This document shows positions 53,291 to 63,585 of a DNA stretch of 64,000 bases, piece after piece. The position numbers and the translations under genes were made by a program. The notes beneath the pieces are model-generated. The model was given only the letters and a program-made list of their open reading frames with translations, searched no databases and had not been told where the DNA came from. Numbering within the stretch: the stretch's first letter is position 1; each line of letters begins with the position of its first letter. Source of the DNA: Felixounavirus LF82P9; sequence record OZ035757.1, one strand, 5' to 3'.

Positions 53291-53322
53291 TTAGAAAATA
53301 AAAAAGGCTCCCGAAGGAGCCT
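53291..53322 (-). terminator. rho-independent terminator (minus strand)
   Basis: Minus strand: stem aggctcc/ggagcct, 4-nt loop, then TTTTTATTTT; downstream of endolysin gene. Confidence 0.6.
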
Positions 53323-53331
53323 ATGAAGATA

Positions 53332-53796
53332 TTACTTTGGATATACACTGTCAAGATAAATGTCAGCTTCCATTCTACGTCTGTTTTTCAGGCCGTTTGA
53401 AGTGACCTTCTTACCTTTGACTGTGACCTTGTTCCACCACTGCATAGCTTCTGCACAACCAACCTTATTACCAGCATTGTGGCGCTTGATAAATGTGGAG
53501 TCCTGCATAGCCGTGATACCAATGTTGTATGTTTCACTTACAAGTGCATCAAACTCATTCTGAGAAGTTGGAACCTTGATAGCTTTGTTAACTGCTGCAA
53601 CGAATTTTTCAACATCTGCAAGAAGATACTGTTCAGCTTGTTCAGCCGTAATTTTCATACCCATCTTAACAGGCTTCCCACCAATACGGATTGTTCCATA
53701 CCCAATTGTGGGGATTCCAGCAGAATCTTCGTAAGCCTCTAGCTTAAGACCTTCAAAGAACTTAATAGCTTCTAAACCTTTTCTTGAGAGTTGCAT
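53332..53796 (-). CDS. endolysin, T4-lysozyme-type muramidase
   Basis: EGLKLEAYEDSAGIPTIGYGT matches the T4 lysozyme family catalytic block. Confidence 0.85.
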   Translation of the reverse strand: MQLSRKGLEAIKFFEGLKLEAYEDSAGIPTIGYGTIRIGGKPVKMGMKITAEQAEQYLLADVEKFVAAVNKAIKVPTSQNEFDALVSETYNIGITAMQDSTFIKRHNAGNKVGCAEAMQWWNKVTVKGKKVTSNGLKNRRRMEADIYLDSVYPK

Positions 53797-54680
53797 TATG
53801 CCTCCCCTGCTGGATTAACTGTAACTGTTGCCGCATTAGATGTTACAGAGCCGCCTGCACCAGTCACTACACAAGTGTAGCTTCCTGCATCAGCGGTGGT
53901 TGCACCTTCTTTGGTGTAAGTTGCAGTAGTTGCATCGAGGATGTCTTCCTCACCTTTCTTCCACTGGTAACCTGTCGCACCTGTTGCCACAACATTCAGC
54001 GTTAAGGTATCACCTTCAGTGATTTCTTGATTGGTTGGTTGCTGAGTGATTACCGGAAGTGCGTTCACAGTCACTGTTGCTGCATCTGAGGTAACACTTG
54101 TTCCACCCTCTCCAGATACAACACAAGTGTATGAACCAGCGTCAGAAGGTGCTACTGACTGTTTTGTGTAAGTTGCAGAATTGGCACTAGGGATATCCTC
54201 ACCATCCTTCTTCCACTGATATCCAGTGGCGTTAGTTGCTAGAATGCTTAGAGTAAGTGTGCCACCCTCTTTGACTGTTTGACCTGTTGGTTGCTGAGTA
54301 ATTGCTGGTGGCTTAATAGCATCCTTCAACTTAGCATTCAACATTGAGAACGGCTTAACTCTTGCCAACCATTCACAGTAAATTGTGTCAACATCTTTAC
54401 CATTGATGATTGCATACTGCAAATCCATGAAGAAATCAGCAGTTCTCATCTGTGCACCAACACTGTAAAGGAGTTCATCACTAAAAGGAACTTTGTAGTC
54501 TGGTTTGTAGTCAAACTTCTCAACTTCTGCAATATCAGCTTCAGGCCAATATGAACTATAGGTAAGTGGTAAAATAGCCTCTTGATATGTTCTAAAATCA
54601 TATCTCTTACCAGCCTTTACATTTGCAATGAAACCCTTCACAAACTCTTTGAAGTCTGGGTAAGTCTTTGCTTTAATCAT
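53796..54680 (-). CDS. protein with N-terminal conserved domain and two Ig-like repeats
   Basis: Two ~85-aa repeats each ending GSYTCVV..G...VTS..ATVTVN (Ig-like); N-terminal ~120 aa paralogous to 54677-55048. Confidence 0.5.
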   Translation of the reverse strand: MIKAKTYPDFKEFVKGFIANVKAGKRYDFRTYQEAILPLTYSSYWPEADIAEVEKFDYKPDYKVPFSDELLYSVGAQMRTADFFMDLQYAIINGKDVDTIYCEWLARVKPFSMLNAKLKDAIKPPAITQQPTGQTVKEGGTLTLSILATNATGYQWKKDGEDIPSANSATYTKQSVAPSDAGSYTCVVSGEGGTSVTSDAATVTVNALPVITQQPTNQEITEGDTLTLNVVATGATGYQWKKGEEDILDATTATYTKEGATTADAGSYTCVVTGAGGSVTSNAATVTVNPAGEA

Positions 54681-55048
54681 TTCTTTTTAGCCTCTAAATG
54701 TGCGTTTAGTCTAAAATAACCTTTGTGATGCGGAGATACATCACCAACAACAATACCTTTAACCTTATAGCCTTTACCAATTACATACTGGATATCCATA
54801 AGGAATCTCCCAAGACCAACAATATGGAACATTGGGTATAATAGGTTCTCAGAATCTGGAATATTGATTTCAGGTTTGTAGGTACGTTGTTTGCTTGTTG
54901 GTGTAATATCTTCTTCAGGCCATTTACTGAGTCTCCATGTCAAAGGTGTTGGGATAACATCATTAAGGTTGTACCTTTCACCATTTTGCACGGAATTGAT
55001 ATAGGATTGTAGGAAGCAATAAAAGTCTTTTGCACTCTTAGCTTTCAT
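54677..55048 (-). CDS. paralogue of N-terminal domain of 53796-54680
   Basis: Shared blocks (KAK..DF..F...YI..V..G.RY, WPE.DI, YKP, LLY, FLMD.QY.I). Confidence 0.5.
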   Translation of the reverse strand: MKAKSAKDFYCFLQSYINSVQNGERYNLNDVIPTPLTWRLSKWPEEDITPTSKQRTYKPEINIPDSENLLYPMFHIVGLGRFLMDIQYVIGKGYKVKGIVVGDVSPHHKGYFRLNAHLEAKKK

Positions 55049-55059
55049 TAAATATCCTT

Positions 55060-55087
55060 ATAAATAGTTAAAGGGGCATCAGCCCCT
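55060..55087 (-). terminator. possible terminator (minus strand)
   Basis: Stem aggggc/gcccct with 4-nt loop; weak A/T tract. Confidence 0.35.
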
Positions 55088-55095
55088 ATTCACAC

Positions 55096-55686
55096 TTAAG
55101 CTTTGGTCTTAAGTAGGTTCTTAAGTTTTTTAAGATTCATACTCTCATCAAACTTAAAACCAAATCCATTGACATAATCAATGAACTCGGATTTCTTACT
55201 GAGTGACAATGCGTAACTCATATCAAAGTTCTTACTTGTTTCTGCGTCTGGACTAGAGTTCACATCAAATGAAATTTCCGTAGGCTCTTGCTTACTTTTT
55301 CTCATATTATCAACCAACAAACATGTATAGTTTGCTGGATAGAAATTTACACTACCATCAACGTAGCTGTACTTATTATTATGGATAAGGTTGGAAAATA
55401 CCTTAAGGAATGTTTCTGAGTCGTGGCAAACAAGTTTGAATTGGCTGCTCTCTCCAAGCGCAACTAATGAGTACGGACTTTCACTATCAAAGTCATAATT
55501 TTGATTCGATGCCGTTACTGTTACACGCATCAAGTTATTAGCAATAGTCTTCTGTTTAAAAGAATTTTGAACATAGTGAAGACCTCTATCACACTGATTG
55601 ACTAGCTCTTTAAGCAGGTCATTTGCATATGGTGAATTAATTGATACAGAGCCATCACTATTGTAATTAAAACTTACTGTTAACAT
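55096..55686 (-). CDS. hypothetical protein
   Basis: ORF track. Confidence 0.5.
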   Translation of the reverse strand: MLTVSFNYNSDGSVSINSPYANDLLKELVNQCDRGLHYVQNSFKQKTIANNLMRVTVTASNQNYDFDSESPYSLVALGESSQFKLVCHDSETFLKVFSNLIHNNKYSYVDGSVNFYPANYTCLLVDNMRKSKQEPTEISFDVNSSPDAETSKNFDMSYALSLSKKSEFIDYVNGFGFKFDESMNLKKLKNLLKTKA

Positions 55687-56758: not shown

Positions 56759-58174
56759 ATGAGCGAATTATTTAAACATGCGCACCTTCATGCAGGTCGA
56801 ACTGAAAATGGTGCTGTAAACCATACTTCATCAATGTCTGCTCTTGTGGACTTTTACAAAGCTGCTGGTTCTAGCCGTAGCAATGTAGAAATCTTACCAG
56901 ACTTGTTCTACAAAGCTTTGCATGAGGATGTTGATGTTGCAGTTCGTATTTTACTGCATATGCGAGATGTACGAGAAGGTATGGGTGAGCGTAAAGCTTT
57001 CCGAACTGTTTTACTTCAAGCGATTGAAGATAAAGTTCTAGAGTCTACACAGGTTCTTCGCATTATGGATAAGATTGCAGAGCTTGGTCGCTTTGATGAT
57101 TTCAAAATCTTCGTGGGTACTCGTTTCGAGACAGATGCCTTCAAGCATTTAGAAGCAGCATTACTAGACCCTGCAACAGCAGGTTTGGCAGCTAAGTGGT
57201 TACCACGAGTCAAACCACGTCATAAGCAGTTTGTAAAACGTTTCTGCAAGTTTGCCAACTTGAGTGAGAAAGAGTACCGCACACTGTTGTCTGCACTATC
57301 TGATACAGTTGAGCAAAAAATCTCTGCTAATGAGTTTGGTAAGATTGACTACAGTAAGATTCCTTCACTTGCTGCTGCACGTTACCAAAAACTGTTTAAC
57401 CGTAAAGATGGAGAGCGTTACAAAGCTTACATCGAGTCCTTATCAAAAGGTGAGACTAAGATTAACGCTGGTGCTGTTTACCCATACGATGTGATTAAAT
57501 CTGTCAAGTATGGTAATGCAGATGTTGCTAATGAGCAGTGGAAAGCACTACCAAACTGGATGGCAGAAGGTGAAAACATCTTGTGTATGTCTGATGTATC
57601 AAGTTCAATGTCTTGGGTGAATTTTGGCTCCATTACTGCTCTGGATATTGGTGTATCACTTGCCTTGTATGTAGCAGAACGCAATACAGGTTGCTTTAAG
57701 AATGAGTTAATGGTTTATTCAACAAACCCTCACTTCATCGAACTGAGTGGTGATTTACGAAACCGTCATCGTCAGGTGATGCGACACGTTGAATATGGCT
57801 CAACTAACTTACAAGCAGCTTTTGACCGCATTCTTGAAACAGGTAAAAGAAACAACTTGACTCAGAAAGATATGCCAAGTAAGCTTATCATCTTCTCCGA
57901 TATGGAGTTCAATCAGGTTGATGGAGCTAACGGTCGTACAAACTTTGAAGCAATTCAGAGTAAGTACAAAAAAGCTGGATATGAGATGCCACAACTGGTA
58001 TTCTGGTACTTAGCAAACCGTAATGGTACTTGCGAAGTATCTGTTAAGGATAACGGTGTAGCAATGGTATCAGGGTTCTCTCCAGCCACTTTAAAAGCTC
58101 TGCTTGGTGGTGAGAAGTTTGACCCAATCAGTGTAATGCTCAAAGCAGTAATGATTGACCGTTATATCTGGTAA
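56759..58174 (+). CDS. vWA-domain protein with large N-terminal helical domain (Ro60/TROVE-like architecture)
   Basis: C-terminal region has MIDAS-like D-x-S-x-S (CMSDVSSSM), downstream T and D (LIIFSDMEF); ~280-aa N-terminal domain; directly upstream of tRNA array. Confidence 0.5.
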   Translation: MSELFKHAHLHAGRTENGAVNHTSSMSALVDFYKAAGSSRSNVEILPDLFYKALHEDVDVAVRILLHMRDVREGMGERKAFRTVLLQAIEDKVLESTQVLRIMDKIAELGRFDDFKIFVGTRFETDAFKHLEAALLDPATAGLAAKWLPRVKPRHKQFVKRFCKFANLSEKEYRTLLSALSDTVEQKISANEFGKIDYSKIPSLAAARYQKLFNRKDGERYKAYIESLSKGETKINAGAVYPYDVIKSVKYGNADVANEQWKALPNWMAEGENILCMSDVSSSMSWVNFGSITALDIGVSLALYVAERNTGCFKNELMVYSTNPHFIELSGDLRNRHRQVMRHVEYGSTNLQAAFDRILETGKRNNLTQKDMPSKLIIFSDMEFNQVDGANGRTNFEAIQSKYKKAGYEMPQLVFWYLANRNGTCEVSVKDNGVAMVSGFSPATLKALLGGEKFDPISVMLKAVMIDRYIW

Positions 58175-58339: not shown

Positions 58340-58416
58340 CTCTGTTTAGCTCAGCTTGGTAGAGCGTTCCGTTTGGGGCGGTAAGGCCGGAGGTTCAAGT
58401 CCTCCAACAGAGACCA
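58340..58416 (+). tRNA. tRNA-Pro(TGG)
   Basis: Cloverleaf; acceptor ctctgtt/aacagag; anticodon loop ttTGGgg; T-loop TTCAAGT; CCA encoded. Confidence 0.75.
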
Positions 58417-58423
58417 AATTAAT

Positions 58424-58501
58424 GTTCCAGTAGACAAAATGGTAAAGTCACCACTCTTTCAAAGTGGATATCTGAGGGTTCAAATCCCTTCTGGAACGCC
58501 A
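58424..58501 (+). tRNA. tRNA-Glu(TTC)
   Basis: Acceptor gttccag/ctggaac; anticodon loop ctTTCaa; T-loop TTCAAAT; CCA encoded. Confidence 0.8.
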
Positions 58502-58508
58502 GTTTTGA

Positions 58509-58581
58509 CAGAAGACCAATTACAGCAAACTTAATCTTATTCATCTGAAGGTAAATCGGACAAAGAAGAGATTTGGTCTGG
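58509..58581 (+). other. box-bounded spacer element E1 (candidate small structured RNA)
   Basis: 5' box CAGAAGACCaaTTACAGCAAA, 3' box tGGTCTGGt; AGACC/GGTCT can pair; family recurs at 58676, 59133, 59220. Confidence 0.4.
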
Positions 58582-58592
58582 TCATTAAGAAT

Positions 58593-58669
58593 TGCGGGTA
58601 TAGAGAAAGGGCGTCTCACATGTCTCATTAGCATGGTATCGGCAGGTTCGACTCCTGCACCCGCCTCCA
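58593..58669 (+). tRNA. tRNA-Met-like(CAT), atypical
   Basis: Anticodon loop ctCATta; T-loop TTCGACT; CCA encoded; 1:72 mismatch (U-C) and extra nt before D-stem. Confidence 0.5.
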
Positions 58670-58675
58670 AATTTA

Positions 58676-58741
58676 CAGAAGACCGTTTACAGCAAAATTG
58701 AATGAAATTTTTAGCGGAAAAAATTGAAAGATACGGTCTGG
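58676..58741 (+). other. box-bounded spacer element E2
   Basis: 5' box CAGAAGACCgtTTACAGCAAA, 3' box cGGTCTGGt. Confidence 0.4.
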
Positions 58742-58754
58742 TAATACTAAACAT

Positions 58755-58831
58755 GGTTAGGAAGCACATAAGGTATGTGCGGTCGCCTGTTAAGCGAATG
58801 GCACAGGGTTCGAATCCCTGACTAACCGCCA
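58755..58831 (+). tRNA. tRNA-Asn(GTT)
   Basis: Anticodon loop ctGTTaa; T-loop TTCGAAT; CCA encoded. Confidence 0.8.
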
Positions 58832-58900
58832 AATTTAGGAGAGAAGCGATTGCTCACCGATTTGTAAGGTGCAAGTCCTTAGCCTGAATAGAAATTAAAT

Positions 58901-58988
58901 GTGTCGTTATCCCGTAGATGGTAGCGGTGGGGACTGTAAATCCCTTGTCATTGAGACTCGGTAGGTTCGACTCCTACACGGCACACCA
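58901..58988 (+). tRNA. tRNA-Tyr(GTA)
   Basis: Anticodon loop ctGTAaa; long variable arm; T-loop TTCGACT; CCA encoded. Confidence 0.8.
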
Positions 58989-58993
58989 ATAAA

Positions 58994-59071
58994 GGTTATG
59001 TAGTTTAATTTGGTTAAAATACTCCCCTGTCACGGGAGATGATGAGGGTTCAAATCCCTTCGTAACCGCCA
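58994..59071 (+). tRNA. tRNA-Asp(GTC)
   Basis: Anticodon loop ctGTCac; T-loop TTCAAAT; CCA encoded. Confidence 0.8.
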
Positions 59072-59132
59072 ATTTTGAGAGGGCTATTTAGCCCCTCCCT
59101 TAAAGGGTTCTTACGAGTATCCTTTAAAGGAG

Positions 59133-59206
59133 CAGAAGACCAAATACAGCAAGAACGTATGAAATTTCAAGCCAATTTAATTTTGAAAATTTAAAACTTG
59201 GTCTGG
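59133..59206 (+). other. box-bounded spacer element E3
   Basis: 5' box CAGAAGACCaaaTACAGCAAg, 3' box tGGTCTGGc. Confidence 0.4.
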
Positions 59207-59219
59207 CTCAACAAATTTA

Positions 59220-59351
59220 CAGAAGACCGTTTACAGCAAAACTTAAACAATCTATTTCTCCGGTAAAGAAAAGGCGAAGGTTCGATTCCTTCACTCGGCA
59301 GAGGTCGAGTTGGTGTAATGGTAGCACTTAAGATGATAAACAACGGTCTGG
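59220..59351 (+). other. box-bounded spacer element E4 (contains tRNA-fragment-like segments)
   Basis: 5' box CAGAAGACCgtTTACAGCAAA, 3' box cGGTCTGGt; interior holds T-arm plus 3'-acceptor-like segment without a matching 5' acceptor. Confidence 0.4.
59276..59300 (+). pseudogene. tRNA 3'-half-like remnant (T-arm only)
   Basis: gaagg-TTCGATT-ccttc followed by actcggc; no complementary 5' acceptor strand found within 200 nt upstream. Confidence 0.35.
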
Positions 59352-59500
59352 TAATTATCTTTGTAGATAAGTTATTAAGCTTACCTGTGAGTATGCGACC
59401 ACAAAGGGTGAAAGGGTAAATTCTAGATTTAAACCCAAAAAGGCACATCGCTACAGACCTTAAGCAAGTCTGGGTAGCTTATCTACAAAGATAATTTAAT

Positions 59501-59576
59501 GGAAGTGTAGCAGAATGGTGATGCGGCAGACTTTTAATCTGACAGGCGATGGGTTCGAATCCCTCCACTTCTACCA
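59501..59576 (+). tRNA. tRNA-Lys(TTT)
   Basis: Anticodon loop ctTTTaa; T-loop TTCGAAT; CCA encoded. Confidence 0.8.
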
Positions 59577-59581
59577 AAAAT

Positions 59582-59658
59582 GGTTCAGTCGCAGATAAGG
59601 TAATGCAAGGGTTTCATAAGCCCTATGAATGTGGGTTCGATTCCCACCTGAACCTCCA
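59582..59658 (+). tRNA. tRNA-Met(CAT) (or Ile-lysidine type)
   Basis: Anticodon loop ttCATaa; T-loop TTCGATT; CCA encoded. Confidence 0.75.
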
Positions 59659-59659
59659 A

Positions 59660-59735
59660 GCTGGTATAGTTAAGAAGGTTATAACACTCCCCTGATAAGG
59701 GAACATCGGTGGTTCGATTCCACCTACCAGTACCA
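59660..59735 (+). tRNA. tRNA-Ile(GAT)
   Basis: Anticodon loop ctGATaa; T-loop TTCGATT; CCA encoded. Confidence 0.8.
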
Positions 59736-59750
59736 ATTTCAATAAAGTTG

Positions 59751-59779
59751 TTGACATTGAGATGTGACTACTTTATAGT
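59751..59779 (+). promoter_or_regulatory. sigma70-like promoter inside tRNA array
   Basis: TTGACA, 17-nt spacer, TATAGT. Confidence 0.55.
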
Positions 59780-60010
59780 AACCTTAGTTTTCGTTGCGTA
59801 GCGTCTATTTTGCAAATTTAAAATAAATGCAAACGACAATGTTTTTCTGGCAGTAGCTTGATAGGCTAAACACCAGTGAGGTCTTCCAATCCCTCATCAA
59901 AGAATTTGGCGTACTAGCCCACGGTATGATTAATAAGGTGGGCAACATTCTAAAGGGTATCCCTTATGGGGCTTGGCTTAAATGCAATAAGTACCCTTTA
60001 AAATGTTAAT

Positions 60011-60087
60011 GCACCCTTAGTTCAATTGGATAGAGCAACGGTCTTCTAAATCGTTAGTTACAGGTTCGAATCCTGTAGGGTGTACCA
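60011..60087 (+). tRNA. tRNA-Arg(TCT)
   Basis: Anticodon loop ctTCTaa; T-loop TTCGAAT; CCA encoded. Confidence 0.8.
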
Positions 60088-60229
60088 AATAGTTAGCAGA
60101 TTGCTTAGACGACCTTATCGGGTCTCCGTGTAAGGAGGTGGTCTGTATCTCATGTTTTCCAGAACATGTAAATAATCTGAGAAGGGGCTTGACAGTGTTG
60201 AGATAATACGGTAAGCTTCGAATTGTAGT

Positions 60230-60312
60230 GTGGGACGATGTTAAGACTCTAAGGCATGAGCAACGGCCTCCAAAACCGTTTCAAAGGGGTTCAACTCCTC
60301 CGTCCCATGCCA
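60230..60312 (+). tRNA. tRNA-Trp-like(CCA), atypical
   Basis: Acceptor gtgggac/gtcccat and T-loop TTCAACT clear; anticodon loop ctCCAaa; ~8 extra nt between acceptor and D-stem. Confidence 0.4.
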
Positions 60313-60325
60313 AAGTCTTATTAGG

Positions 60326-60413
60326 GGTAGGTAGCGGCTAATGGCAGCCAAACAGTCTTGAAAACTGTTGCCACTGTAGAGATACGGTGAGGGTTCGACT
60401 CCTTTACTTACCG
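60326..60413 (+). tRNA. tRNA-Ser(TGA)
   Basis: Anticodon loop ctTGAaa; long variable arm; T-loop TTCGACT; CCA not encoded. Confidence 0.8.
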
Positions 60414-60671
60414 CCTAATAAGATTTTACACCGTCCATGCTTGCTCGCATTTTCGGTTTATCCCTCGTGTATTGTCGTACACACTGATAAAGCACCTAGT
60501 AGGTGTCACGGAGAAGAGATAATATCAAGCTCTCCAAAGGTTCTAGTCACCGGATTAAACAAGACTATGCAAAGACCTTTTTAGGTCTTTTTAGAGGGCT
60601 TCTAAGGTTATTACAGCTTGTTGTGGAACCTTGTTGCTTAGGTTCTTAGAAGTTCTCTAAAAAGATTTAAT

Positions 60672-60749
60672 GGGAGATTGACGGTAATTGGTAAACCTAC
60701 CATCCTTAGAAGTTGGTGTTTGAGGGTTCGAATCCCTTGTCTCCTACCA
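60672..60749 (+). tRNA. tRNA with anticodon TAG (Leu by anticodon), short variable arm
   Basis: Acceptor gggagat/gtctcct; anticodon loop ctTAGaa; T-loop TTCGAAT; CCA encoded; A73; anticodon stem has one mismatch. Confidence 0.5.
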
Positions 60750-60756
60750 AATTAAT

Positions 60757-60832
60757 GCAGGTGTAGCAAAATGGTTATGCGGCTGACTCTTAATCAGTAA
60801 GACGATGGGTTCAATTCCCTCCACCTGTACCA
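60757..60832 (+). tRNA. tRNA-Lys(CTT)
   Basis: Anticodon loop ctCTTaa; near-paralogue of tRNA-Lys(TTT); CCA encoded. Confidence 0.75.
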
Positions 60833-60838
60833 AAAAAT

Positions 60839-60914
60839 GGGGTCATAGTTTATATGGTTAAAATTCGAGTTTTGCAAACTTGGGAACTGAGTTCAATTCT
60901 CAGTGACTCCACCA
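60839..60914 (+). tRNA. tRNA-Ala(TGC)
   Basis: Anticodon loop ttTGCaa; G3-U70 wobble pair in acceptor stem; CCA encoded. Confidence 0.8.
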
Positions 60915-60920
60915 ATTAGT

Positions 60921-60995
60921 GCATCCATAGTTTAAACGGGAAAATTACAGTCTTCCAAACTGAGGTTGAGGGTTCGATTCCCTCTGGATGCTCCA
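60921..60995 (+). tRNA. tRNA-Gly(TCC)
   Basis: Anticodon loop ctTCCaa; T-loop TTCGATT; CCA encoded. Confidence 0.8.
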
Positions 60996-61002
60996 AATTA
61001 AT

Positions 61003-61078
61003 GCTCCTATCGTATAATTGGCTATTACGGTTGCCTTGTAAGCAACTTATCAGGGTTCGAATCCTTGTGGGAGCACCA
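61003..61078 (+). tRNA. tRNA-Thr(TGT)
   Basis: Anticodon loop ctTGTaa; perfect anticodon stem; CCA encoded. Confidence 0.8.
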
Positions 61079-61174
61079 ATTCAGAGGTCAAGTGAAAGAC
61101 CGCTTTGAGTCAACTGAAGACCGTAACAAATTCCACGGAGTTGAGTTAGCGGCACAACTTCAGACCTCTTTCAC

Positions 61175-61249
61175 ACTCGCTTAGTTTATATGGTAAAACA
61201 CCACCCTTACAAGATGAAGAAAAAGGTTCAAGTCCTTTAGTGAGTACCA
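61175..61249 (+). tRNA. tRNA-Val-like(TAC)
   Basis: Acceptor, D and T arms good; anticodon loop ctTACaa but anticodon stem only 3 of 5 pairs. Confidence 0.5.
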
Positions 61250-61250
61250 T

Positions 61251-61328
61251 GTTCCAGTATCCCAATTGGCAGAGGATGCAAGCTCAAACCTTGTATTAGT
61301 GACGGTTCGAATCCGTCTTGGAACACCA
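61251..61328 (+). tRNA. tRNA with anticodon CAA (Leu by anticodon), short variable arm
   Basis: Anticodon loop ctCAAac; 3-bp D-stem with long D-loop; 6-nt variable region; A73; CCA encoded. Confidence 0.55.
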
Positions 61329-61333
61329 ATTTT

Positions 61334-61409
61334 GCAGGATTAGTTCAAATGGATAGAGCAACAGTCTACGAAGCTGTTAATAGGGGTTCGAACCCCTTAT
61401 CCTGCACCA
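61334..61409 (+). tRNA. tRNA-Arg(ACG)
   Basis: Anticodon loop ctACGaa; T-loop TTCGAAC; CCA encoded. Confidence 0.8.
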
Positions 61410-61427
61410 GATAAGCAAGAGGAATTT

Positions 61428-61670
61428 ATGCAAACATTAATCGTCGTTGAACATGAAAATTCCAATAGTATTGAGTTTGTAAGGGTTCCCACTATAGATA
61501 CCCACATTTTCTTAAAAGTCGGATGGGAATGCGACCCAATAAAAGTAGAAAGATTTATTGGTCATTGCTTTGGTGGAAGACAACTTAAAAGTGTCAATTT
61601 TGAGACAATGTTACCAGAAAGCTCAGAAACAAGTAATAATGCTTACCTCCTTACGAGGGTTAGACAATGA
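61428..61670 (+). CDS. hypothetical protein inside tRNA array
   Basis: ORF track; starts 18 nt after tRNA-Arg. Confidence 0.4.
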   Translation: MQTLIVVEHENSNSIEFVRVPTIDTHIFLKVGWECDPIKVERFIGHCFGGRQLKSVNFETMLPESSETSNNAYLLTRVRQ

Positions 61671-62224
61671 GATACTTAAAATATGCTTCATGGATTTTCT
61701 TAGCTTTGCTAGAACCACTTGCAGCAATACTAGCAGTTATCTTAGCACCTTTTGTAGTTCCATTCTACAGTGAGAAGAAAGGACACTTACCTTTCGGGTT
61801 CAGATGGATGGAGACATATGACAACCCAATTGATGGTGATGAAGGTCACGTTAAAAGATGGGCTAATATCAGATGGATTGGTAAACTAGGTGTCTACATG
61901 CAAAGAGTCGGATGGCTCTGGAGAAACAAAGCTTATAACTTCTCTTACCATGTATTAGGAAGAGATGTAAAAGATGTTACTAAGTGGAAAGGTAATATCA
62001 ACGTAAGTTCTGACCCTGAAGATAATCAGACAGGTTATCTCCTAATGTGGAACAGTAATGCTTGGGGATTATTCGCTTTTATCCCATCAATTAAAATCTT
62101 TGGTAAACAATTTTACTGGAGAATTTATATTGGATGGAAACTAAAAAGTGTTGTCCCAGAAGAAAGAGCATTCTCAAGGGAAAGAGTTATGTTGGCATTC
62201 TTTATTCATCCACTGAGAAAGTAA
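61667..62224 (+). CDS. Trp-rich membrane protein inside tRNA array
   Basis: N-terminal TM (WIFLALLEPLAAILAVILAPFVV); ATGA overlap with upstream ORF. Confidence 0.45.
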   Translation: MRYLKYASWIFLALLEPLAAILAVILAPFVVPFYSEKKGHLPFGFRWMETYDNPIDGDEGHVKRWANIRWIGKLGVYMQRVGWLWRNKAYNFSYHVLGRDVKDVTKWKGNINVSSDPEDNQTGYLLMWNSNAWGLFAFIPSIKIFGKQFYWRIYIGWKLKSVVPEERAFSRERVMLAFFIHPLRK

Positions 62225-62232
62225 AGATTTAA

Positions 62233-62308
62233 AGGGGATTAGTTTACAAGGTTAAAACCTCGGTCTTTGAAATCGAAGAAGTTGGTTCAATTCCAACATC
62301 CCCCGCCA
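62233..62308 (+). tRNA. tRNA-Gln(TTG)
   Basis: Anticodon loop ctTTGaa; T-loop TTCAATT; A1-C72 mismatch; CCA encoded. Confidence 0.75.
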
Positions 62309-62310
62309 AT

Positions 62311-62389
62311 GCTCCATTACTCCAATTGGCAGAGAGGCCAGACTTAAAATCTGTGTTATGTATCGGTTCGAATCCGATATGGAGTACCA
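62311..62389 (+). tRNA. tRNA with anticodon TAA (Leu by anticodon), short variable arm
   Basis: Anticodon loop ctTAAaa; D-arm paralogous to the CAA tRNA; A73; CCA encoded. Confidence 0.55.
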
Positions 62390-62394
62390 AATTT

Positions 62395-62470
62395 AGCGGC
62401 ATAGCATAACTGGCAATGCAGCAGTCTCTGAAGCTGTCTTATTAAGGTTCAAATCCTTATGCCGCTGCCA
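62395..62470 (+). tRNA. tRNA-Gln(CTG)
   Basis: Anticodon loop ctCTGaa; T-loop TTCAAAT; CCA encoded. Confidence 0.8.
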
Positions 62471-62501
62471 CTTCTAAGGATTCTTACGAGAGTCCTTAAA
62501 T

Positions 62502-62577
62502 GTGGCCTTATCATAAATGGTAATGACCCATGCTGTGAACATGGTCTATACGGGTTCAAATCCCGTAGGTCACCCCA
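62502..62577 (+). tRNA. tRNA-His(GTG)
   Basis: Anticodon loop ctGTGaa; perfect anticodon stem; C73; CCA encoded. Confidence 0.8.
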
Positions 62578-62582
62578 ATTTA

Positions 62583-62659
62583 TAGTCCAAGTAGCTTATA
62601 TGGTTAAAGCGCGTGTCTGAAAAACATGAGAAGAGGGTTCAAATCCCACTGGACTACCA
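62583..62659 (+). tRNA. tRNA-Phe(GAA)
   Basis: Anticodon loop ctGAAaa; D-arm ta-gctt...aagc; acceptor register ambiguous by 2 nt. Confidence 0.65.
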
Positions 62660-62675
62660 ATTTCAAAGGTGCTTA

Positions 62676-63410
62676 ATGAAAGAGATGACAGAACAAGGTA
62701 AGGAGATTTTCAATCTCTTAAAAACCGGTAAAGGGTTTTCTAACCCCCTTATTACTGGTGCAGCAGTTCTCGGTGGAACCGTAGCTGCCTCTACATCACT
62801 TGTAAGCTCTATTAGCTCTGTATCAGACCCTGCAGTAAAGGATAAGCTTGTTGCTGCTGGACTTACAACAGTTCTGCTTAACAGCTTTACCACGAGTCTG
62901 ACAAGCACTACATCAACTACCAAAACACTAACAGATTACGGTCAAAAGTCCATTGATGAGTTTTCATCACGTATGCAGGTAGCAAAAGGTTACTCTAATG
63001 TTATGGGTGCAGCAGGTGAACAAGTTGGCTGTACACCATTTAGTGGTATTATGGGTGTTGCTACAGAGTATGGTCAAAAAGCTATTGATACGATTAACAG
63101 TGCACTAGATAGTGTTAATGGTGTGTTAAGTGACTTACAAGATGCTATTGACAAAGGTCTTGATACTATTTCTGATTTAGCTGAGCAAGCTGTTAGTAAG
63201 ATTAATGAAGGTATTTCAAAAATTACAGCTTATGCAGATGAAGTTGTGCAGATGATTGAAGAAGAAGCTGCTCTTATTGCAGAGTACCTTAAAACGAATA
63301 TCAATGGGTTCTTAGCAGGTATCTTACCAGACTGGTTTGATGATGCTTGTAAAACTGGTGTAATTGACACTATTGCAACACCAGAAATGAAGAACGCATT
63401 ACAGAAATAA
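62676..63410 (+). CDS. Ser/Thr-rich membrane protein inside tRNA array
   Basis: ORF 62613-63410 trimmed to Met after tRNA-Phe; hydrophobic segment then S/T-rich tract; stop 2 nt before tRNA-Ser. Confidence 0.45.
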   Translation: MKEMTEQGKEIFNLLKTGKGFSNPLITGAAVLGGTVAASTSLVSSISSVSDPAVKDKLVAAGLTTVLLNSFTTSLTSTTSTTKTLTDYGQKSIDEFSSRMQVAKGYSNVMGAAGEQVGCTPFSGIMGVATEYGQKAIDTINSALDSVNGVLSDLQDAIDKGLDTISDLAEQAVSKINEGISKITAYADEVVQMIEEEAALIAEYLKTNINGFLAGILPDWFDDACKTGVIDTIATPEMKNALQK

Positions 63411-63412
63411 AT

Positions 63413-63505
63413 GGAAGATTAACCCTAAAAGGTAAGGGAGCAGTTTGCTAAACTGCCAGTAGCTGAGAAATCGGTGTACCAGTTCAAGTCTGGTATCTTC
63501 CTCCA
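63413..63505 (+). tRNA. tRNA-Ser(GCT)
   Basis: Anticodon loop ttGCTaa; long variable arm; perfect acceptor ggaagat/atcttcc; CCA encoded. Confidence 0.85.
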
Positions 63506-63509
63506 ATTT

Positions 63510-63585
63510 GAATCCGTGACAGAAATGGCTATGTGCCTGTCTGCAAAACAGGTTTATAAGGGTTCGAGTCCCTTCGGATTCTCCA
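63510..63585 (+). tRNA. tRNA-Cys(GCA)
   Basis: Anticodon loop ctGCAaa; perfect anticodon stem; CCA encoded. Confidence 0.85.

Follow-up and report, generated by a model that had tools for sequence, protein, structure and literature searches.

Two overlapping minus-strand genes beside the endolysin gene of Felixounavirus LF82P9 very probably encode a Hoc-like capsid decoration protein, Hex-Dec, together with an adjoining ancient duplicate of its capsid-binding domain (CapBD) alone, a possible accessory at the time of assembly. The DNA analyzed was a stretch of 64,000 nucleotides from this Felix O1-like myophage (OZ035757.1; hereafter, the window). The identity of Hex-Dec is already known, as two 2025 cryo-EM studies settled it. 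What is new here is the CapBD-only paralogue coupled to Hex-Dec, a small unreported detail. An earlier note on the window, made from the sequence without database searches, had pointed out two adjacent minus-strand genes between positions 53796 and 55048, an N-terminal domain of ~120 amino acids (aa) shared by their products, and two Ig-like repeats of ~85 aa in the longer product. The genes lie exactly there (Table 1), and both the shared domain and the repeats proved to be far beyond chance.

Table 1. Features of the Hex-Dec locus in the window
Feature	Position	Strand	Homologues or basis of assignment
Intrinsic-terminator-like hairpin and T run, 3' of endolysin	53305..53322	minus	AGGCTCCTTCGGGAGCCT then TTTTTATTTT
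Endolysin, GH24 phage lysozyme, final gene of transcription unit	53332..53796	minus	PF00959 (E = 6.7e-41); PHROG 7
TAATG overlap, Hex-Dec stop/endolysin start	53796..53800	minus	Read from sequence
Hex-Dec, 294 aa	53796..54680	minus	Felix O1 gp36, Bas63 Hex-Dec, Sf14 gp20 homologue; PHROG 3995
Ig-like domain 2, residues 209-294, conserved terminal unit	53799..54056	minus	Pfam I-set, best stretch 209-283
Ig-like domain 1, residues 125-208	54057..54308	minus	Pfam Ig_3/Ig_2/I-set
CapBD of Hex-Dec, residues 1-122	54315..54680	minus	Alignment to solved Bas63 CapBD
ATGA overlap, paralogue stop/Hex-Dec start	54677..54680	minus	Read from sequence; translational coupling
CapBD-only paralogue, 123 aa	54677..55048	minus	Felix O1 ORF37, Sf14 gp21, bas63_0125 homologue; PHROG 4463
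Conserved 196-aa gene, always upstream of the pair	55096..55686	minus	PHROG 4034; Felix O1 ORF38

Gene order and transcription unit

The neighbor that the earlier note had called an endolysin is indeed a phage lysozyme. The pair adjoins it because all three genes form one transcription unit, as evidenced by the overlapping start and stop codons and by the terminator that follows the lysin gene; the endolysin has no functional link to the pair. Gene order around the pair and the endolysin is conserved throughout the Ounavirinae. The order 196-aa gene, paralogue, Hex-Dec, endolysin is common to Felix O1, Bas63, and the window, and Hex-Dec lies directly 5' of the endolysin in Felix O1, Sf14, Bas63, Mordin, mistaenkt, M7, and an uncultured scaffold. 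A proper ribosome-binding site stands in front of the paralogue. The 196-aa gene has a dN/dS of 0.08, and the product of its Felix O1 homologue, ORF38, is not in the virion proteome list of that phage. Scanning for consensus promoters gave a result no better than that obtained with shuffled sequence, and our search of the literature for a Felixounavirus transcriptome or additional virion proteomes found nothing relevant.

The longer gene encodes a Hex-Dec homologue

Judged by its homologues, the 294-aa product is a Hoc-like Hex-Dec capsid decoration protein. Searches with phmmer against the PDB matched it to 9ncf_S (E = 7.9e-246) and 9c2d_S (E = 6e-168), and its match to PHROG 3995 had an E value of 8.5e-171. 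The CapBD differs from the solved Bas63 CapBD (PDB 9NCF) at 4 of 122 residues (~97% identity), and the gene has the same length and gene order as Felix O1 ORF36 (294 aa, beside lysin gp35), whose product, gp36, likewise carries two Ig domains. Cryo-EM of Bas63 and Sf14 revealed the CapBD as a monomer at the center of 60 edge hexamers of a T=9 head (PMC12609058, PMC11821841). Arg79 and Arg107 of Sf14 gp20 form salt bridges with an aspartate in the major capsid protein (PMC11821841). Both arginines are present in the Hex-Dec of the window and are invariant in an alignment of 15 homologues (A4), and the dN/dS of the Hex-Dec CapBD is 0.04. Mass spectrometry identified Felix O1 gp36 as a virion component (14 peptides, 44% coverage; PMC3185647), and Sf14 gp20 was also detected in virions by this method. 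On the strength of these near-identical homologues, the Hex-Dec of the window is predicted to bind capsid hexamers: its CapBD would insert as a monomer into the centers of edge hexamers and would be held there by the Arg79 and Arg107 salt bridges.

How widely does this anchor occur? Neither the PDB, nor BFVD, nor 1.84 billion representative sequences yielded a CapBD relative outside the Ounavirinae. An exhaustive CapBD profile search for distant relatives returned 13 representatives, one of which (P0104) was a spurious repeat protein, and the P0097 scan of viral_contigs gave no match. In a comparison made to look for an internal duplication of the domain, hhalign paired its two lobes, L1 and L2, only weakly, although the register was as expected (P = 0.005, probability 7.5%). 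In the AlphaFold2 (AF2) model of full-length Hex-Dec, the CapBD was poorly predicted from a shallow, near-identical alignment (pLDDT of 30 to 50), and the model was therefore used for the Ig region only.

The C-terminal repeats are I-set Ig domains

Both C-terminal repeats of the 294-aa protein (84 to 86 aa) are genuine I-set Ig domains. The two repeats are 67% identical in protein and 65% identical in DNA, and the TLTL, GSYTCVV, and ATVTVN motifs, which correspond to the pattern that the earlier note had quoted, occur in both. A repeat search at the DNA level did not detect them because their identity there is only ~65%. Profile search, which had been proposed as a check, and structure prediction agreed on the Ig fold. 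The Pfam families Ig_3 (E = 1.8e-22, two stretches), Ig_2, and I-set scored above their gathering cutoffs, AF2 modeled the region with a pLDDT of ~95 over residues 123 to 290, and Foldseek matched this model to tandem I-set/C2 Ig modules (E = 1e-13 to 1e-15).

Phage EcoM2 has a three-Ig variant whose Ig1 shares 99% identity with that of the window. Ig2 is 94% identical to the last Ig domain in three-Ig variants, and Ig4 of Bas63 is nearly identical to it. The Ig domains would form a flexible fiber extending from the head. By analogy with T4 Hoc, they would most likely serve to bind glycans, mucus, or cell surfaces weakly, or else to aggregate virions.

The short gene carries only a copy of the CapBD

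An ancient tandem duplication gave rise to the short gene, which encodes nothing beyond a CapBD. Its product shares the fold of the Hex-Dec CapBD, and the two genes are translationally coupled. A BLASTP alignment of 101 residues between the short protein and Hex-Dec showed 38% identity (E = 7e-16), and profile alignment lengthened the homology to ~120 residues, with 35 columns conserved across both families. The protein ends immediately after the CapBD. In the PDB, its only sequence matches were 9ncf_S and 9c2d_S (E about 1e-11). The same two capsid-binding chains were the only Foldseek matches (TM 0.65, probability 1.0) to its AF2 model, which is of moderate confidence (pLDDT of 75.5); structure prediction of the shared N-terminal domain was a further check that had been proposed.

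Of 252 Ounavirinae records, 232 have the paralogue. It evolves under purifying selection: its dN/dS is 0.12 for the whole gene and drops to 0.07 in the C-terminal half, compared to 0.085 for the lysin. Its family comprises 51 clusters of 88 to 124 aa (122 to 124 aa for full-length members); none of these clusters has a Pfam domain, and the length is too short for an Ig unit. In a tree, the paralogues cluster separately from the Hex-Dec CapBDs. An uncultured lineage retains the tandem layout even though its paralogue is just 45 to 48% identical, whereas the Hex-Dec CapBDs are 57% identical across the same split. One viable lineage (REP8, fBSPA4, CECAV_041, and P54) carries the same decayed paralogue pseudogene.

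What separates the two families? Across 45 clusters of the paralogue family, R79 is replaced by Gly (fixed) and R107 by Gln or His, and a total of 41 fixed family-specific differences from Hex-Dec are found at the surface and in the core. The window proteins also differ in charge, with a pI of 9.4 for the paralogue versus 5.5 for the Hex-Dec CapBD. Charge complementarity as a general argument for an electrostatic partner was rejected because the pI within the paralogue family spans about 5.2 to 9.3.

The paralogue and the virion

Is the paralogue a part of the particle? Felix O1 gp37 is not on the virion mass spectrometry list, yet that list does include proteins as small as 9.7 and 11.7 kDa (PMC3185647). 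As far as the main text of the VpaE1 study indicates, the 22 virion proteins of that phage do not include ORF40. Both of these proteomes are older ones. Non-structural mass spectrometry matches do not appear in the Sf14 supplements. Although the paralogue is present in the genomes of both Bas63 and Sf14 (bas63_0125 and gp21, respectively), it goes unmentioned in the two structure papers (PMC12609058, PMC11821841). It is not modeled in either capsid, and the maps are without density on the remaining hexamers; these maps are icosahedrally averaged, and a monomer on a true threefold hexamer would be smeared. These observations hint that the paralogue may be absent from virions.

The tail tips of Bas63 and Sf14 also show a trimeric density, rich in helices, to which no protein is assigned. 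This density was counted against the reading of the paralogue.

Comparison with known decoration proteins

Hex-Dec of Bas63 (9NCF chain S) occupies the same position as that of the window and shares with it the CapBD, both arginines, Ig1, and the terminal Ig unit. It has four Ig units compared to two in the window, and the difference consists of whole internal units. Sf14 gp20 (PDB 9C2D/9C3A chain S; Mooglevirus) has a homologous CapBD, which sits as a monomer at the center of the hexamers beside the pentons, and three Ig domains that are 56 to 69% identical to the units of the window. A CapBD-only gene, gp21, adjoins gp20, as in the window.

T4 Hoc resembles Hex-Dec in being a monomer at the hexamer center with an outward string of Ig-like domains. 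The resemblance extends to being non-essential and to having a gene apart from the main cluster of head genes. In Hoc, the C terminus attaches to the capsid, whereas in Hex-Dec the order is reversed and the binding domain is N-terminal. The capsid-binding domains of the two proteins have distinct topology and minimal sequence similarity (PMC12609058), and no T4 Hoc chain is among the PDB sequence matches listed for Hex-Dec. Hex-Dec is not a member of the T4 Hoc family.

T5 pb10 also combines a capsid-binding domain at the N terminus with a C-terminal Ig-like domain at hexamer centers, and its Ig domain is detectably similar to those of Hex-Dec (5lxk_A, E = 2.3e-12). However, its capsid-binding domain is unrelated, it has a single Ig domain, and it has no known anchor-only paralogue. 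In Kolesnikvirus (Erwinia phage M7 and the phiEa21-4 group), a protein (gp008 in M7) with a homologous CapBD (P0099, profile E = 2.3e-10) is encoded directly upstream of the endolysin, as in the window. Its display domain is an Ig domain of the Big_2 type and not I-set, and M7 has no CapBD-only paralogue between gp009 and gp008.

Possible functions of the paralogue

What, then, might an anchor without Ig domains do? The paralogue is co-translated with Hex-Dec and keeps the fold, with the anchoring arginines and many surface positions replaced and no display domain attached. That it is always retained beside Hex-Dec and coupled to it suggests a linked role. Our preferred reading, which we offer tentatively, is that the paralogue could be a non-structural accessory in head assembly or in the loading of Hex-Dec, at most transiently or weakly bound and dispensable for plaques. 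It would act on coat-protein hexamers or on Hex-Dec itself. A more specific and doubtful version is that of an anchor without cargo, which would occupy Hex-Dec-free hexamers (the 20 threefold hexamers, or those of the procapsid) or Hex-Dec and thereby set the number of Ig fibers per head. The earlier note had assigned its candidate roles to the pair jointly. A decoration role stands for Hex-Dec; the paralogue is without display domains, known coat contacts, or detection in virions.

We regard it as rather unlikely that the paralogue reuses the CapBD scaffold for a non-capsid target, be it a host or a phage protein. There is precedent for such a switch in Psu of phage P4, a capsid-decoration protein that is also an inhibitor of Rho. 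The fixed differences from Hex-Dec, with the loss of both anchoring arginines, the faster evolution of the paralogue than of the Hex-Dec CapBD, and its absence from the virion lists would all suit a new partner. However, no domain, motif, or structural match to another function was found, and in every lineage having the paralogue it is strictly retained beside Hex-Dec and coupled to it.

It is improbable that the paralogue is a second hexamer-center decoration protein, present on the 20 threefold hexamers or in sub-stoichiometric amounts and missed so far. The paralogue retains the full CapBD fold, is co-expressed with Hex-Dec, and is most strongly conserved in the half that bears the capsid contacts of Hex-Dec. 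Its altered contacts could suit the different Asp221 geometry reported at true threefold hexamers (PMC11821841), and icosahedral averaging would blur a monomer on the threefold axis. Nevertheless, neither cryo-EM study found density on the threefold hexamers, Felix O1 gp37 is missing from a shotgun proteome that caught smaller, lower-copy proteins, the VpaE1 homologue is likewise missing from the virion proteins given in the main text of that study, and the natural null lineages are viable.

Two further readings are very improbable. One, raised in the earlier note, gives the pair a targeting role, toward the cell wall or carbohydrates, in the service of the neighboring endolysin or of a depolymerase. 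In its favor, the pair directly adjoins the lysozyme gene, the stop and start codons overlap, and Ig-like domains are able to bind glycans. This proposal did not survive, as Hex-Dec is a virion component located on the capsid hexamers of two relatives with solved structures, the endolysin is complete in itself as a GH24 lysozyme, and searches of Pfam and PHROG gave neither protein a catalytic, peptidoglycan-binding, or membrane domain. The other is that the short gene is a decaying, functionless remnant of a duplication, as its pseudogenization in one lineage might suggest; against this stand its low dN/dS, an intact open reading frame of 122 to 124 aa across lineages diverged to 45% identity, its ribosome-binding site, and its coupling to Hex-Dec.

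The database label, by which both genes would be tail proteins, is almost certainly wrong: GenBank and UniRef use the name "tail protein," PHROG 3995 is in the category "tail," and the Ig domains also match the C termini of major tail proteins, but the name goes back to Felix O1 gp36, whose naming had no structural evidence behind it, the solved position at the capsid hexamer center refutes it for Hex-Dec, and the Bas63 study explicitly calls it a mis-annotation (PMC12609058). Of the capsid or tail decoration that the earlier note had also considered, the capsid part is thus borne out by the 9NCF and 9C2D homologues and by gp36 in virions, and the tail part falls, since cryo-EM places the protein on the head.

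Implications

The "tail protein" of hundreds of Felix O1-like genomes should be corrected to a Hoc-like capsid decoration protein. If the paralogue competes for hexamer sites or prepares them, it would bear on how the copy number of a display protein is controlled per head, and on the use of the Hex-Dec anchor for phage display on therapeutic phages of the Felix O1 type. Natural null mutants of the paralogue exist for comparison. An anchor without cargo, if this doubtful version is true, would be an undescribed regulation of capsid decoration, conserved in Felixounavirus, Mooglevirus, Suspvirus, and an uncultured relative.

Capsid position and family of the 294-aa protein

In a sequence search of the PDB, the 294-aa protein matched 9NCF chain S ("Immunoglobulin-like domain protein"; E = 7.9e-246) and 9C2D/9C3A chain S ("Putative tail protein"; E = 6e-168). 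The former belongs to the icosahedral capsid reconstruction of Escherichia phage Bas63, a Felixounavirus (PMC12609058), and the latter to that of Shigella phage Sf14, a Mooglevirus (PMC11821841). The two proteins, Hex-Dec in Bas63 and gp20 in Sf14, are both described as a Hoc-like decoration protein, whose capsid-binding domain at the N-terminus (CapBD; ~118-122 residues) occupies the hexamer centre as a monomer. Binding is limited to the 60 facet-edge hexamers, which adjoin the pentons of the T=9 capsid, and the Ig-like domains are flexible and unseen in the maps (PMC12609058, PMC11821841). In Sf14 gp20, Arg79 and Arg107 are salt-bridged to Asp221 on three subunits of the coat protein (PMC11821841). 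Both arginines are kept in the LF82P9 protein and are invariant in 15 homologues, and its CapBD differs from that of Bas63 at 4 of 122 positions. Judged by sequence, the 294-aa protein belongs in the Ounavirinae Hex-Dec family, showing every defining feature that sequence can test. Identity and location are established experimentally in near-identical relatives and, by homology, would hold for LF82P9.

In Felix O1 the same 294-aa gene is ORF36, adjoining lysin ORF35. Whole-phage shotgun mass spectrometry detected its product in virions (14 peptides, 44% coverage), where it was named "tail protein" without structural evidence (PMC3185647). The label has propagated to most genomes and to PHROG 3995, and the Bas63 authors call it a mis-annotation (PMC12609058). 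The earlier note had proposed capsid or tail decoration; the first was right for the long gene, since its homologues (9NCF chain S, 9C2D/9C3A chain S) sit on capsids. A tail protein, as the inherited label would have it, is scarcely credible for a protein whose homologue is located at capsid hexamer centres. The Hex-Dec part of the finding is not new, having been reported in two 2025 structural papers and a proteome of 2010.

In the way it works Hex-Dec resembles T4 Hoc and T5 pb10, yet it belongs to neither family. Its domain order is reversed relative to T4 Hoc, and its anchor domain, restricted to Ounavirinae, is unrelated in sequence to the Hoc and pb10 anchors.

Variation in the number of Ig units

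The C-terminal part of Hex-Dec comprises two repeats of 84-86 aa with 67% mutual identity. The earlier note had read them as Ig-like and suggested an HMM search, which bore this out: Ig_3 (E = 1.8e-22), Ig_2 and I-set matched above the Pfam gathering thresholds. AlphaFold2 modeled the repeats with a pLDDT of ~95, and their Foldseek matches were tandem I-set/C2 Ig modules (MALT1, Robo, MuSK, titin; E = 1e-13 to 1e-15). Hoc-like roles of the Ig fibre, in adhesion or aggregation, have been put forward as proposals (PMC11821841, PMC12609058).

Hex-Dec homologues carry one to four Ig units, with lengths of 210, 294-297, 372-378 or 460 residues. In variants with three, the first unit matches the window's first (Ig1) at 99% identity and the last matches its second (Ig2) at 94%, with an additional unit in the middle; where there is a single unit, it is nearest to Ig2. 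These identities indicate that length varies by in-register gain or loss of whole Ig units, a variation noted too from structure predictions (PMC12609058).

Gene order and transcriptional setting

The 3-kb region around the pair shares 95-97% DNA identity with many Felixounavirus phages of Escherichia, Salmonella and Shigella, among them ASO1A, momo and VpaE1. G+C content in the window is ~39%, and its gene order is that of Felix O1.

Features at and near the Hex-Dec locus (window coordinates)
Feature	Position	Strand	Description
Unknown-function gene g196	55096-55686	-	196 aa ORF, PHROG 4034
Small hairpin	55064-55086	-	GGGGC-TGAT-GCCCC then TTTAA
CapBD-only paralogue	54677-55048	-	123 aa ORF
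Hex-Dec	53796-54680	-	294 aa ORF
Endolysin	53332-53796	-	154 aa ORF; PF00959 lysozyme, E = 6.7e-41
471-aa protein gene	56759-58174	+	
tRNA genes	58340-63585	+	26 genes (ARAGORN)

The four minus-strand ORFs run consecutively. Hex-Dec overlaps both of its neighbours: its start codon with the stop of the paralogue (ATGA), and its stop with the start of the lysin gene (TAATG). A strong terminator-like hairpin lies 3' of the lysin gene. The order g196, paralogue, Hex-Dec, endolysin is kept in Felix O1, Sf14, Bas63, Mordin and mistaenkt and on an uncultured 87-kb scaffold; Erwinia phage M7 (genus Kolesnikvirus) has the same order without the paralogue.

Does this position imply a function in lysis? 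The earlier note was correct that an endolysin adjoins the pair, and from this adjacency a cell-wall or lysis role had been considered. No peptidoglycan-binding, catalytic or membrane domain was found in either protein. Together with the overlapping codons and the conserved order, this makes a lysis role for the pair most improbable; the adjacency is one of shared transcription and translation. A promoter scan at the locus was uninformative, and a literature search for a transcriptome found none. The major capsid protein gene is absent from the window, so the decoration gene lies apart from the head gene module. T4 hoc is likewise located away from its head gene module.

Every Ounavirinae genus examined has the g196 gene directly upstream of the Hex-Dec locus, even Kolesnikvirus with its missing paralogue. 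The dN/dS of g196 is 0.08, and its product is missing from the virion proteome of Felix O1. The small hairpin between g196 and the paralogue is conserved and is kept even in a lineage with a pseudogene paralogue; the Mordin record has a terminator annotated between the corresponding genes. It may be a partial terminator or an RNA-stability element. The tRNA array lies directly downstream of the gene for the 471-aa protein, annotated in relatives as 'RNA-binding protein' or DUF2828 (pfam11443); this striking pairing is typical of Felix O1-like phages.

An ancient, anchor-only copy of Hex-Dec

The two adjacent genes are tandem paralogues with a common N-terminal domain, as first noticed from the sequence: the proteins share 38% identity over 101 residues (E = 7e-16), and family-level alignment extends the similarity to ~120 residues and shows 35 columns that both families conserve. 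The paralogue (PHROG 4463, "unknown function") has no Pfam match, and its only PDB sequence matches are two Hex-Dec chains (E ~1e-11). Structure prediction, also suggested earlier, agreed. An AlphaFold2 model (mixed alignment, pLDDT 75.5, pTM 0.75) matched by Foldseek only the solved CapBD chains 9ncf_S and 9c2d_S in the PDB (E ~2.5e-5, TM 0.65; next match, E ~1) and only Ounavirinae proteins in BFVD. As modeled, the paralogue is a complete CapBD with nothing beyond it.

An exhaustive CapBD profile search of 1.84 billion representative proteins returned just 13 matches. Among them were Kolesnikvirus proteins with a Big_2-type Ig on the same anchor, two further proteins in which other Ig-like sequence follows the anchor, and another protein with a lysine-rich tail. 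The anchor appears to be a platform whose displayed domain has been swapped. Among these anchor proteins (Erwinia phage M7 gp008, P0099-P0103), annotation confirms the Kolesnikvirus arrangement; the Ig-like sequence or lysine-rich tail in other Ounavirinae-like lineages is read from sequence only.

The paralogue was found in 232 of 252 Ounavirinae records, including both solved phages (Sf14 gp21, bas63_0125), with 83-99% identity within Felixounavirus and 74-77% in Mooglevirus and Suspvirus. On the uncultured scaffold, a 122-aa paralogue (P0097) adjoins a 298-aa Hex-Dec (P0098). In a neighbour-joining tree, the paralogues, including P0097, formed one clade and the Hex-Dec CapBDs, including P0098, another, which places the duplication before the split from the uncultured lineage. 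By Nei-Gojobori over 10 phages, paralogue dN/dS was 0.12 for the whole gene, 0.18 for its first half and 0.07 for its second; the Hex-Dec CapBD gave 0.04, Ig1 0.20 and the lysin 0.085. These ratios indicate that the paralogue is under purifying selection.

Forty-one positions are fixed differently between the two families. Arg79 has become an invariant Gly in the paralogues and Arg107 a Gln or His. Of the features that define a decoration protein of the Hex-Dec family, the paralogue keeps the anchor fold and lacks two, the Arg contacts and the display domain. Charge complementarity of the paralogue was also considered and dropped because pI is not conserved across its family.

Virion data and possible roles of the paralogue

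The paralogue of Felix O1 (gp37) is not in the virion protein list, though proteins of 9.7 and 11.7 kDa were detected (PMC3185647). The 22 virion proteins of VpaE1 are defined in the text of its report as those of Felix O1 without gp23 and with gp54, gp58 and gp68 added; going by that definition, ORF40 (the paralogue) lies outside them. No density is reported on the remaining hexamers of the Bas63 and Sf14 capsids, although icosahedral averaging would smear a monomer on a true threefold hexamer, and neither paper mentions the paralogue gene (PMC12609058, PMC11821841). Both virions have a helix-rich trimeric density at the tail tip, around the puncture apparatus, without an assigned protein (PMC12609058); some virion component is thus still unnamed.

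In about 19 of the 252 records, Hex-Dec alone gives a match. Four of these were examined: REP8, fBSPA4, vB_CECAV_041 and P54, which come from the USA, India, Spain and China. In each, the paralogue has decayed to a pseudogene with a common start-codon loss (ATG -> ATA) and internal deletion of ~220 nt, overlaid by later private indels. For these four, this amounts to one old loss in a lineage still successfully isolated. The paralogue is dispensable for plaque formation. Two records call for comment: PV390658.1 (vB_EcoM_P54) is an 88-kb Felix O1-like genome with the taxonomy line Straboviridae/Tequatrovirus, and GU169904.1 (147-kb 'Staphylococcus phage SA1') contains Felix O1-like sequence with the Hex-Dec locus at 98% identity, which suggests a chimeric or contaminated assembly.

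What, then, might the paralogue do? The intact CapBD fold, strict coupling to Hex-Dec, purifying selection, lost coat contacts, absence from virion lists and dispensability are together best fitted, tentatively, by a non-structural or transiently bound accessory factor that would act during head assembly or Hex-Dec loading. Of the two main rivals, a new non-capsid target, compatible with the replaced arginines, is rather doubtful. Less probable again is that the paralogue is a genuine second decoration protein, seated on the 20 threefold hexamers; there averaging could hide a monomer, and the lack of density in both capsid studies and the virion lists speak against it. A decaying remnant, which the pseudogene lineage would recall, is very unlikely for a gene under purifying selection.

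The paralogue, as an ancient, selected, anchor-only Hex-Dec copy absent from virion data, is the only unreported element found here, and we regard it as a modest lead, for which REP8, fBSPA4, vB_CECAV_041 and P54 are ready-made natural knock-outs.
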